A stretch of DNA of 64,000 bases from a virus: positions 1 through 64,000 of IMG/VR virus record IMGVR_UViG_3300047443_000115. One strand, 5' to 3'. Positions within the stretch are counted from its first letter, which is position 1. Each line of letters begins with the position of its first letter. The notes beneath the pieces are model-generated. The model did no database searches. It saw nothing but the letters and a program-made list of their open reading frames with translations, and was not told where the DNA came from. Shown here piece by piece: positions 3,010 through 5,943 of the stretch. The translations under genes were made by a program, and so were the position numbers.

Positions 3010-3180
3010 TCAACGGCTGAACGACTGGAACGCCGCCCGCTCCACGCGCCCGGCACTCGCCGCGTCGGGCATGATGCGCGCCAGGGCGGGTGACGCGGCG
3101 GCGCTGCCCCGGGAGGCCAGTTCCGCGAGGGTGATACGGCGGCGGGTCTGGGGTGCGGCGGCCAGGTGGGTGTGGTCCAT
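3010..3180 (-). CDS. FxSxx-COOH-like small peptide, 56 aa (not in the ORF track)
   Basis: Hand translation: MDHTHLAAAPQTRRRITLAELASRGSAAASPALARIMPDAASAGRVERAAFQSFSR*; GGAGGAG RBS. Confidence 0.65.
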   Translation of the reverse strand: MDHTHLAAAPQTRRRITLAELASRGSAAASPALARIMPDAASAGRVERAAFQSFSR

Positions 3181-3283
3181 GGGGGCTCCTCCGTGGGGGC
3201 GGCCTCGACTCGACGGGGGCGCGAGCCGAGGCCTGAAGTGAGGGTAGCGCGACAGGGGGAAGCCCCCGGCCGAATCGGCGCGG

Positions 3284-3470
3284 GGGCTGCATCCCCGTGG
3301 GTACGGGGCAGAGGTTGCGACCGAGATGTCTCCCGGTCCATCCCCACGTTGGTGGGGAACATCCGGTCTGCTTGCAGTCGATGGCGGTGGTGCCGCTCCG
3401 ACATGAGCCAGTCTCGCTGGCCTGCGAGTCGACCGGTGGTGCGTGCCATCCCCGCCGCAGCGGGGTTGAG
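3284..3470 (-). CRISPR. Three solitary, mutually divergent type I-E CRISPR-repeat-like units (no cas genes)
   Basis: Minus strand: CTCAACCCCGCTGCGGCGGGGATGGCACGC (3441-3470), ATGTTCCCCACCAACGTGGGGATGGACCG (3334-3362), CTCTGCCCCGTACCCACGGGGATGCAGCCC (3284-3313); each has a 6-bp stem, 4-nt loop and ATG tail. Confidence 0.7.
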
Positions 3471-3503
3471 TACCAATGTGCCATACGGGGCCGACATTGG
3501 TGT

Positions 3504-3893
3504 CTAGAACGCGGCGAGTCCAGCGGTCTCGTCTTCCCAGCGCTCTGCGGCGGCCTGGCGGTCCGAGTACAGGCGGCGCCAGCCGCGCTCAACCGCTGGG
3601 GCGCCGGGCACGCCGTCCGGGTGGAGCGATGTGCGTCGGACCTCGTAGACCGTGATGGCGAGGCTGGCGGCGCGCATCTCCCGGAGGCTGAAGGAGAGGC
3701 GCGCGGTGTCGCCGCTTCGAGTGAGGGTCTCTTCGGCCTTGGTGCGCACGAGACCCTGTCGGAGGTCGCCGTGCATGGCGGCTTCCCGGATGGCCTTCTC
3801 GGTGTCGGGGTCAAGGCCCTTGCGGTCGGCGCCGCTAAGCCACTGGGGGATGTCGGCGATGTGAGCAGTGCCGATGGGAACGGCGGGCTGCAT
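3504..3893 (-). CDS. Hypothetical protein (anti-defence candidate)
   Basis: MQPAVPIG start with GAGGAG RBS; between the HTH gene and the repeat mimics. Confidence 0.65.
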   Translation of the reverse strand: MQPAVPIGTAHIADIPQWLSGADRKGLDPDTEKAIREAAMHGDLRQGLVRTKAEETLTRSGDTARLSFSLREMRAASLAITVYEVRRTSLHPDGVPGAPAVERGWRRLYSDRQAAAERWEDETAGLAAF

Positions 3894-3997: not shown

Positions 3998-4360
3998 TCA
4001 GCGCTTGCCGAGCCACCTGCGGACGGCCATCCGGTCGACCCCTGCCTGCTGCGCGAACCCAGCTTCGGTGGCGTCGCCGTTGTTGATCCGGGTGACGCCG
4101 ATCTGTCGCAGGGCGACGAGAGCCTTGCGCTCGGCCGCGCGGGCGTTGACGCGCTCACTGGCGAGTTCGGCGATGAGGTCTTCCGGGGCCTCGACCATGA
4201 GGCGGTAGGCAGCGGTGAGAGCGGCCTCGCGGTCGTCGCGGTCGTCCTCGTCGGGGTACTGCTCTTCGATGTCACCGGCGGTGCGGAGGAGTTCGGCGAT
4301 CTGGTCGTCGTCGAGTCCGTGGTCGTTTCCGAGCCAGGCTTCAAGTTCGTAGAGCTGCAT
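3998..4360 (-). CDS. Small acidic protein with C-terminal HTH (Aca-like candidate)
   Basis: TEAGFAQQAGVDRMAVRRWLGK HTH; operator pair directly upstream. Confidence 0.75.
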   Translation of the reverse strand: MQLYELEAWLGNDHGLDDDQIAELLRTAGDIEEQYPDEDDRDDREAALTAAYRLMVEAPEDLIAELASERVNARAAERKALVALRQIGVTRINNGDATEAGFAQQAGVDRMAVRRWLGKR

Positions 4361-4393
4361 GACGGTCCCTTCCCGAAGCGCCCCTCGCTCCAT

Positions 4394-4896: not shown

Positions 4897-5943
4897 ATGA
4901 GTCTGCTTCCGGAACCCGTCACCGCAGCACCCAGTGAGCTTGAGTCCGCACCCGCTGCGGCGGTGAAGCTGCGCGGCACACCTCCCGCCGCGTCACCGGC
5001 CGCGCTCGCCGCCCTGCTCCGTGACGCCGGCGCCGCGCCCGGCATCCTCGAAGCAACTGAGGCGTGGATGAACAAGCGCGAGTCCGAGCACTCCCGCATC
5101 GCCTACGCCAAGGACGCGTCCTGGTGGCTCGCCTGGTGCGCCGCATCCCAGACCGACCCGGCCGCCGCGCGCGCGGTCCACACCGACCAGTACGCCGCCG
5201 CCCTGCGCGAGTCCGGTCTCGCCAAGTCCACCCGGGCCCGCCGCCTCGCCGCCGCCTCATCCTGGTACGCCTACCTGGTGCGCGCCGAGGTCGCAGAGCG
5301 GAACCCATTCGCCGGTATGGACCGTCCGTCGGTGTCCGCCGACGACTCGCCCACCCGGGGCATGACGCCCGCCCAGTTGGCCAAGTTGCTGACCTACGCC
5401 CGCGAACACGAAACCGCGCGCACCTACGCCCTGCTCGTCACCCTCGCCACCACAGCCGGGCGCATCGGCTCAATCCTCGCCGCACCCGTGGCGGCCGTCG
5501 GGCATGACGAGGGGCACCGCGTCATCGACCTGGTGGTGAAGGGCAACCACGCCAAGCGAGTCGTCCTCGTCCCCCTCGCCGTCGCCGCCATCGAGACGTA
5601 CCTCGCTGAGCGCGGCAAGGCCGACCCCGAGGCGCCACTGTTCGCGACGAGCACCGGCCGGCCGATGGATGAGCCCGCCGCGTTCCGTACCGTGCGGCGG
5701 GTGGCGAAGGCCGCGGGTATTCCGCACGCTGACGCCATTTCTCCCCACTCGCTGCGCCACTCCTACGCCACGGCACTGCTCAGCAAGGGCGTGCCGCTCG
5801 CCGACGTACAGGACGCCATGGGACACGCGGACCCGCGGACCACTCGACGCTACGACCGCGCGGCGGGTGCCCTGCACCGATCGCCTTCGTACCGGATGGC
5901 GGAGGAGTTGGCGAAGGCCATGCACGCACCGCCAGGTCCATAG
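4897..5943 (+). CDS. Tyrosine recombinase, XerC/D-like
   Basis: TTAGR, VKG, SPHSLRHSYAT, MGHADPRTTRRY catalytic motifs; N-terminal core-binding domain, no arm-binding domain. Confidence 0.93.
   Translation: MSLLPEPVTAAPSELESAPAAAVKLRGTPPAASPAALAALLRDAGAAPGILEATEAWMNKRESEHSRIAYAKDASWWLAWCAASQTDPAAARAVHTDQYAAALRESGLAKSTRARRLAAASSWYAYLVRAEVAERNPFAGMDRPSVSADDSPTRGMTPAQLAKLLTYAREHETARTYALLVTLATTAGRIGSILAAPVAAVGHDEGHRVIDLVVKGNHAKRVVLVPLAVAAIETYLAERGKADPEAPLFATSTGRPMDEPAAFRTVRRVAKAAGIPHADAISPHSLRHSYATALLSKGVPLADVQDAMGHADPRTTRRYDRAAGALHRSPSYRMAEELAKAMHAPPGP

Follow-up and report, generated by a model that had tools for sequence, protein, structure and literature searches.

A cas-less, Streptomyces-type phage carries type I-E CRISPR repeat mimics in a candidate anti-CRISPR RNA locus

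The window analysed here, meaning the whole stretch of 64,000 nt, is the first 64 kb of the IMG/VR virus record IMGVR_UViG_3300047443_000115 (91,588 bp), which is linear, has a GC content of about 69% and is 97% complete by the CheckV estimate. The large terminase is nearest to those of Streptomyces phages, with 62% identity to phage Kromp, and the phage is a temperate one of the Streptomyces type. A cluster of three hairpins lies on the minus strand of a 323-nt gap (3181-3503), in and around which the following features are found, listed from right to left:

3998..4393, minus strand: gene for an HTH DNA-binding protein, first of the leftward unit (phrog_2311, E 1e-13).
3504..3893, minus strand: upstream orphan gene, 129 aa counted from an internal ATG.
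3472..3501, minus strand: inverted repeat ACCAATGT-N14-ACATTGGT, the only copy in the 91.6-kb record, located after the stop codon of the orphan gene and before U1.
3442..3470, minus strand: U1, I-E repeat-like unit with stem CCCCGC/GCGGGG, loop TGCG and a partly degenerate handle (ATGGCACG).
3363..3441, minus strand: segment between U1 and U2, 79 nt, with a closed multi-branch fold (-34.6 kcal/mol, z -3.6; none of 200 shuffles reached this stability).
3334..3362, minus strand: U2 (psiR1), intact as an I-E repeat; its stem of 6 bp is CCCCAC/GTGGGG, its loop has 4 nt, and the 8-nt 5′ handle ATGGACCG is complete.
3314..3333, minus strand: pseudo-spacer (psiS), 20 nt, 12 nt short of a canonical I-E spacer.
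3285..3313, minus strand: U3 (psiR2), I-E hairpin CCCCGT/ACGGGG retained, handle degenerate (ATGCAGCC).
3261..3288, minus strand: terminator-like GC-rich hairpin that starts inside the U3 handle, with no U-run, UU only (z -4.1 for 3250-3300).
3010..3180, minus strand: 56-aa ORF, downstream, past the terminator-like hairpin and preceded by GGAGGAG.

The gap can be taken as non-coding, since its GC content is flat across the codon positions (0.65-0.73), as opposed to a GC3 of 0.82-0.88 in the flanking genes, and as RNA it is unusually structured (fold z -4.7). No Rfam family was found between 2800 and 3900 at permissive thresholds, and no sigma-70-type promoter was called between 2900 and 4100. 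The inverted repeat at 3472-3501 may serve as an operator, bound by the HTH protein of the leftward unit, or as a promoter element. Homologues of the HTH gene occur on Streptomyces linear plasmids, and the two plasmid loci that carry them (L001 and L002) are without the hairpin cluster. The 129-aa orphan protein has a single homologue cluster (95% identity), and searches of Pfam, PHROG, PDB sequences and the Atlas gave no match; as none of them provided a lead, the protein was dropped as a candidate anti-CRISPR protein (Acr). No relatives of it were found among viral contigs, nor did a metagenome scan using the 95%-identical homologue find anything. The 56-aa ORF, which ends in AAFQSFSR, has a weak, below-cut-off match to FxSxx-COOH cyclophane RiPP precursor families (E 3e-4).

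Genes for recombination lie near both ends of the record: a XerC/D-like tyrosine recombinase gene near the left end (4897-5943, plus strand), and near the right end one for a classical phage integrase (plus strand, record 89814-91124, which is L263:5814-7124), accompanied by an HTH_17 excisionase-like gene. Between the two ends there are no convincing att repeats, and a scan of the window for a tRNA, as a test for an att-site remnant, found none. The left 4.4 kb may lie outside the phage proper, with a second integrase at the right end and no att repeats found. Were the contig a permuted circle, the hairpin locus would lie about 4 kb from the right-end integrase, in a typical accessory region. 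The first-pass annotation had reported no cas genes in the window, and this holds for the whole 91.6-kb record, across which the Cas6e, Cas7e and Cse1 families were searched for and not found.

The hairpins begin at 3465, 3357 and 3308, and each consists of a 6-bp stem and a 4-nt loop followed by ATG, with the sequences CCCCGC-TGCG-GCGGGG-ATG (U1), CCCCAC-CAAC-GTGGGG-ATG (U2) and CCCCGT-ACCC-ACGGGG-ATG (U3). At stem positions 5 and 6, two double, pair-preserving changes distinguish the units (G-C to A-U in U2 and C-G to U-A in U3), and no pair is broken. Taken in their 29-nt repeat frames (U1 3442-3470, U2 3334-3362, U3 3285-3313), the units are 79 nt (U1-U2) and 20 nt (U2-U3) apart, with hairpin-to-hairpin periods of 108 and 49 nt. 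A search for CCCC-NN-loop(3-6)-N'N'-GGGG on both strands of the whole 91,588-bp record returned just three copies, which are U1-U3 and lie within 172 nt, and in 300 first-order Markov simulations of the genome the motif with ATG occurred in a mean of 0.013 copies (maximum 1). The sequence and this whole-record search confirm the three minus-strand hairpins, with their ATG tails and compensatory changes, as described at first pass, and the irregular gaps, given there as about 78 and 20 nt, are 79 and 20 nt as measured.

The resemblance to type I-E repeats was assessed with a covariance model of 38 distinct natural I-E repeats, with which both strands of the 64-kb window were scanned unfiltered. 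Its top three matches lie on the minus strand: U2 (34.9 bits, E 9e-9), U3 (22.5 bits, E 8e-5) and U1 (3446-3465, 13.5 bits, E 0.055), and everything ranked below U1 has an E value of 0.24 or worse. The training repeats had been gathered by a pattern that fixes the handle, so that the model favours U2-like handles and is biased against U1 and U3, not for them. When one genome per prokaryote species was searched with the generic pattern and the U2 handle, many real arrays with a 61-bp period were found (Nocardiopsis, Thermus, Marinactinospora and several MAGs), whose repeats equal U2 in the whole stem and all 8 handle bases and are identical to it at 24-25 of the 29 positions. An unbiased BLAST search of U2-spacer-U3 against 72,556 plasmids returned only the I-E CRISPR arrays of Thermus, Deinococcus and Nocardiopsis. 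Streptomyces arrays have the stem CCCCGC/GCGGGG, as in U1, and the handle ATGGACC followed by C. All three stem variants are present in natural arrays, the type of U3 in the array locus L024.

In summary, a type I-E repeat is marked by a length of about 29 nt, a C/G-clamped stem of 6 bp, a loop of 4 nt and 8 nt on the 3′ side that become the crRNA 5′ handle. The units share these features to differing degrees, and there is good support for mimicry of such repeats on a mobile element that has no cas genes. The model, the array alignment and the plasmid BLAST make it strong for U2, clear for U3 and weak for U1, and the earlier view of U2 as a nearly canonical I-E repeat stands, on both the model score and the agreement of stem and 8-nt handle with natural repeats. 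The units do not make up a canonical I-E array, which has a 61-bp period (814 of 893 intervals in chromosomal arrays), spacers of 32-33 nt and near-identical repeats; here the periods are 108 and 49 nt and the units have diverged from each other.

U2 and U3 form a two-repeat unit with a 49-nt period, a 20-nt pseudo-spacer and a terminator-like hairpin after U3. The full handle is retained by U2 alone and U3 retains only the hairpin, which fits the requirement of one mature crRNA-like RNA. The pseudo-spacer and the end of the handle are partly self-complementary and are predicted to form an 8-bp hairpin; such pairing would be unusual in a guide and seems more in keeping with a non-guiding decoy. 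The hairpin at 3261-3288 looks, as folded in silico, like a Streptomyces-type terminator. It was not called by a consensus terminator scan, and a hairpin occupies the equivalent position at the viral loci L150 and L155. The 3′ arm of U3 (GGGGA) could pair with a UCCCC run past the terminator hairpin (3250-3300, minus strand), extending the terminator and competing with the U3 stem; in the fold of the whole gap, the U3 hairpin prevails. On the other side of U2, the U1 hairpin folds at -15.5 kcal/mol (z -3.3), and the 79-nt interval fits no known spacer length and has no significant BLAST match in phages or plasmids. A fourth, very degenerate unit within this interval (a hairpin near 3405-3422) was considered and rejected, as the covariance model has no match inside the segment.

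A scan of IMG/VR for the generic unit gave 76 loci, many of them with solitary or paired I-E-like units in high-GC contigs. Pairs with the exact 49-nt period occur in three unrelated contigs (L140, L150 and L158), and 7 of the 105 intervals at viral loci measure 44-55 nt, as opposed to 2 of 893 in chromosomal arrays (Fisher p 4e-6). A final unit with its hairpin retained and its handle lost is seen in L150, L155, L132, L134 and L198, and the same asymmetry is found in the host locus L228 (see below). The two- and three-unit I-E-like arrays with pseudo-spacers of 15-24 nt are located as follows, on the minus strand and counted on the reverse-complemented locus:

L140:939-1020, minus strand: array with the 49-nt period.
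L150:10968-11050, minus strand: array with the 49-nt period.
L158:5957-6040, minus strand: array with the 49-nt period.
L155:170-330, minus strand: three-unit array with 24- and 21-nt intervals (periods 53 and 50 nt).
L132:3438-3580, minus strand: array with intervals of 15 and 32 nt.

Directly upstream of the L140 array is a TTGACA-17-TATGAT promoter, and both pseudo-spacers of L155 start with TAACGGT. In a 58%-GC viral contig (L198:6214-6310, minus strand), one unit equals U2 in the prefix ATGTT, the loop CAAC and the handle, with one pair-preserving double change in the stem (G-C for A-U); this unit heads a mini-array with a normal 32-nt spacer. No flanking proteins are common to the hairpin locus and the other viral I-E-like loci and there is no conserved synteny; hence, the layout arose or spread without regard to the surrounding genes.

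Of 401 Streptomyces genomes, 166 (about 40%) contain a Cse1 match; one of these, in G134, an unpublished genome on which nothing else here depends, is weak. Together with the affinity of the terminase, the tally fits the presumed host range of a locus directed against I-E. Many of the Streptomyces Cse1 matches (e.g., L203, L204 and L207) lie in open frames of about 1,450-1,800 aa, a length that would fit frequent Cas3-Cse1 gene fusions at the I-E loci of Streptomyces. We examined 34 cse1 loci with 1.5-kb flanks, and in one of them (L228:790-1190, minus strand; contig C334 of the Streptomyces genome G225), two degenerate I-E repeats with a 49-nt period lie about 650 nt from cse1. Next to an AAC, and directly ahead of a hydrophobic ORF of 72 aa, there is a site to which the 20-nt pseudo-spacer of L228 matches at positions 1-5, 7-11 and 13-14; seed matches of at least 9 arose in only 16 of 500 shuffles. 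This match is the every-sixth-base pattern expected of I-E pairing, and the unit looks like a CreTA-type guard, with the 72-aa ORF as a candidate CRISPR-guarded toxin. Hence, this unit suggests that short-spacer crRNA-like regulators exist in the Streptomyces clade. Weak model matches in two other cse1 loci (L201 and L227) lie inside coding sequence and were discarded.

Two kinds of RNA-based counter-defence are relevant to such a locus. In Racrs, viral solitary repeat units (SRUs; Faure et al. 2019, as cited in PMC10651486) act as RNA anti-CRISPRs that tie up Cas proteins (Camara-Wilpert et al. 2023, PMC10651486), and 2,103 solitary repeat units have been catalogued on viral sequences (PMC10651486). 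Cracrs are viral mimics of CreA/CreR, the host crRNA-like regulators of type I systems, and are often stacked in arrays (bioRxiv 10.1101/2024.10.29.618823). According to the same preprint, the pseudo-spacers of I-E Cracrs measure 21 and 24 nt and their final repeat is degenerate, I-F pseudo-spacers are mostly 17-21 nt long, the 49-nt product of CracrIF2 gives complexes with fewer backbone subunits, and Cracrs are expected to work alongside Acrs or Racrs (10.1101/2024.10.29.618823).

As is the case for a Racr, the locus places repeat mimics in a non-coding intergenic gap of a virus record that is without Cas6e, Cas7e and Cse1. In SRUFinder, a unit counts as solitary when no full or partial repeat lies within 100 bp (PMC10651486), and the distances of 20 nt (U2-U3) and 79 nt (U1-U2) mean that it would discard the present units or class them as an array or mini-array. 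The first-pass annotation had called the units solitary repeat mimics, and while the mimicry stands, "solitary" describes them poorly. The layout psiR-psiS-psiR with a shortened pseudo-spacer on a mobile element, which is that of a Cracr, is present as U2, 20 nt and U3, followed by the terminator-like hairpin.

Taking together the mimicry in sequence and structure, the layout and its recurrence elsewhere, all directly observed, we infer transcription, processing, Cascade loading and an anti-CRISPR effect, and we judge that 3285-3470 is probably, though far from certainly, an anti-CRISPR RNA locus, with a Cracr-like, crRNA-like core, whose spacer is two Cas7 steps short, and an extra decoy unit. 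The gap at 3285-3470 would encode a cas-less mimic RNA of a type I-E CRISPR transcript, directed against the I-E system of the host. Transcription would run leftward, either by read-through from the unit of the HTH and orphan genes or from an unrecognised promoter at the inverted repeat, and would end at the hairpin 3261-3288. Cas6e cleaves I-E repeats after the hairpin, and the host enzyme would do so here at the end of each hairpin's GGGG. The product from U2 to U3 would be a 49-nt crRNA-like RNA, composed of the 8-nt canonical handle AUGGACCG, the 20-nt pseudo-spacer and the 21-nt U3 hairpin end with Cas6e bound. As the spacer is two Cas7 steps short, this RNA would be expected to assemble a shortened Cascade, which could occupy Cas proteins. 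Should the pseudo-spacer have a partly matching target, such as the promoter of cas or of a CRISPR-guarded toxin, the complex may bind there without licensing Cas3, which is the Cracr mechanism. U1 and the folded 79-nt segment would act as a further Cas6e-binding decoy, as in Racrs. That the three stem variants serve as decoys for several Cas6e variants, as proposed at first pass, is possible, given that all three stem types are present in natural arrays.

We looked for a target of the pseudo-spacer in several collections. The handle plus seed had no match in 401 Streptomyces genomes, seed-type scoring against shuffles in the 34 cse1 loci and the phage itself gave nothing above the shuffle level, and pattern scans of viral and metagenome contigs found nothing. 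With at most one mismatch, a 17-mer of the pseudo-spacer had about 105 near-matches in 151 genomes, far more than the reversed control; these are codon-like, none is near cse1, and they look like codon artefacts. The authors of the Cracr study take at least 9 PAM-proximal matches to a host CreR/CreA counterpart as their criterion (10.1101/2024.10.29.618823), and in the Streptomyces sample (401 genomes, 34 cse1 loci and 151 genomes) neither a counterpart with that degree of agreement nor a matching cas or creT promoter turned up; the host may lie outside this sample.

The lack of a target found for the pseudo-spacer, together with its self-complementarity to the handle, is what might be expected if the 20-nt interval held no guide information and the three hairpins were pure decoys, each independently sequestering Cas6e (and Cas7) in aberrant complexes of the Racr type. 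The occurrence of all three stem variants in natural arrays and the Racr precedent (PMC10651486) also speak for such decoys. However, this would leave unaccounted for the exact 49-nt period that recurs in other viruses and in a host cas locus, the handle is kept solely where a crRNA-like product needs one, and the units fail the solitary rule of SRUFinder, so that we regard an action purely as decoys as unlikely.

A locus that had lost its function would show some of the same features. In a collapsed and drifted mini-array or Cracr array, the hairpins would persist as stable RNA or terminator structures without an anti-CRISPR function, and the degenerate handles of U1 and U3, the irregular spacing (108 and 49 nt) and the failure to find a target or relatives are in line with such decay. 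Decay is harder to reconcile with three 6-bp stems that are all perfect, including two pair-preserving double changes, with a fully canonical U2, and with a layout that, terminator included, equals that of independent viral loci, and we consider a decayed remnant rather improbable, although decay and pure decoys remain the chief competitors of the preferred reading.

The preferred reading of a Cracr-like core with an extra decoy can also be extended to a composite weapon, in which one transcript would hold the U1 decoy, the folded 79-nt segment as the "spacer" of an oversized crRNA-like species and the guide that is two Cas7 steps short. The guide would then have its target outside the known CreR/CreA sites and cas promoters, e.g., in another Streptomyces defence or toxin gene, and the locus would lie in the integrase-proximal accessory region of a conjugative phage-plasmid. 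We put this forward as a speculative elaboration with little chance of being right in full.

The first-pass annotation had also raised the possibility of a mini-array aimed at competing elements. A genuine mini-CRISPR array would borrow the Cascade and Cas3 of the host against competing phages or plasmids, or for superinfection exclusion; virus-borne mini-arrays do exist (PMC10651486; PMC11656645), and similar units flank 32-33-nt spacers in the IMG/VR contigs L134, L164 and L198. At the present locus, however, the spacers are 20 and 79 nt instead of 32-33 nt, and the BLAST comparison of the intervening segments, the pseudo-spacer unit included, that had been proposed as a check found no protospacer and no significant match in 50,697 phage records or 72,556 plasmids, which makes a functional mini-array very unlikely. 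Least probable of all is a chance likeness to I-E repeats in GC-rich DNA, in which the hairpins would be terminators in a cluster, a REP-like element or palindromes bound by protein. The GC-rich genome, the highly structured gap (z -4.7) and the absence of Rfam matches might suggest as much, but the chance expectation is 0.013 per genome, U2 reaches an E value of 9e-9 that includes 8 unpaired handle bases needless for a terminator, and the compensated variation of the stems argues against a protein site in duplex DNA.

RNA-based counter-defence of this type has been described between 2023 and 2026, and the locus is a good new example that leaves the principle unchanged. In the literature consulted, we found no examination of RNA-based anti-CRISPRs in Streptomyces phages, although about 40% of the sampled Streptomyces genomes carry type I-E. 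The candidate is compact: its single putative transcript would bring together three stem variants, one handle of canonical sequence and a pseudo-spacer that falls two Cas7 steps short. It opens the questions of how far the Streptomyces Cas6e tolerates stem variants and of whether a shortened Cascade acts as a repressor in Streptomyces. Together with the CreTA-like unit of L228, it suggests that the contest between host regulators and phage mimics, described in Proteobacteria, also takes place in actinomycetes.

Compared with known systems, the locus resembles virus-borne mini-CRISPR arrays in that viral repeats without cas genes would rely on the Cas proteins of the host, whereas those arrays have spacers of canonical length that match related viruses, as opposed to the 20 and 79 nt and the lack of protospacers here. 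With CreA/CreR and the L228 unit, it shares two degenerate repeats, a short pseudo-spacer, the 49-nt period and a handle on the first unit only; those regulators lie in cas loci and match a neighbouring promoter, whereas the phage locus belongs to a mobile element, and the search for a matching promoter gave none. Its units are 20 and 79 nt apart and not solitary, unlike those of Racrs, and no nearby acr gene was recognised, but as with Racrs, intergenic I-E repeat mimics are found on a cas-less virus, for a subtype common in the presumed host genus, and the small operon around them, which includes an HTH gene and one for an orphan small protein, recalls acr-aca loci. From Cracrs, it differs in the failure to find either a host counterpart (CreR/CreA) or a target in a cas or creT promoter for the pseudo-spacer, in its folded first interval of 79 nt, and in its presumed host, Streptomyces, which is not mentioned in the Cracr preprint. 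Like Cracrs, it is borne by a phage, lies outside a cas locus and has degenerate I-E repeats around a short pseudo-spacer (20 nt here, 21 and 24 nt in CracrIE), with a degenerate last repeat, a stacked multi-unit layout and a putative decoy-type unit alongside. Hence, in our analysis, the unit of U2, 20 nt, U3 and terminator fits the Cracr layout, and U1 fits a co-encoded decoy.
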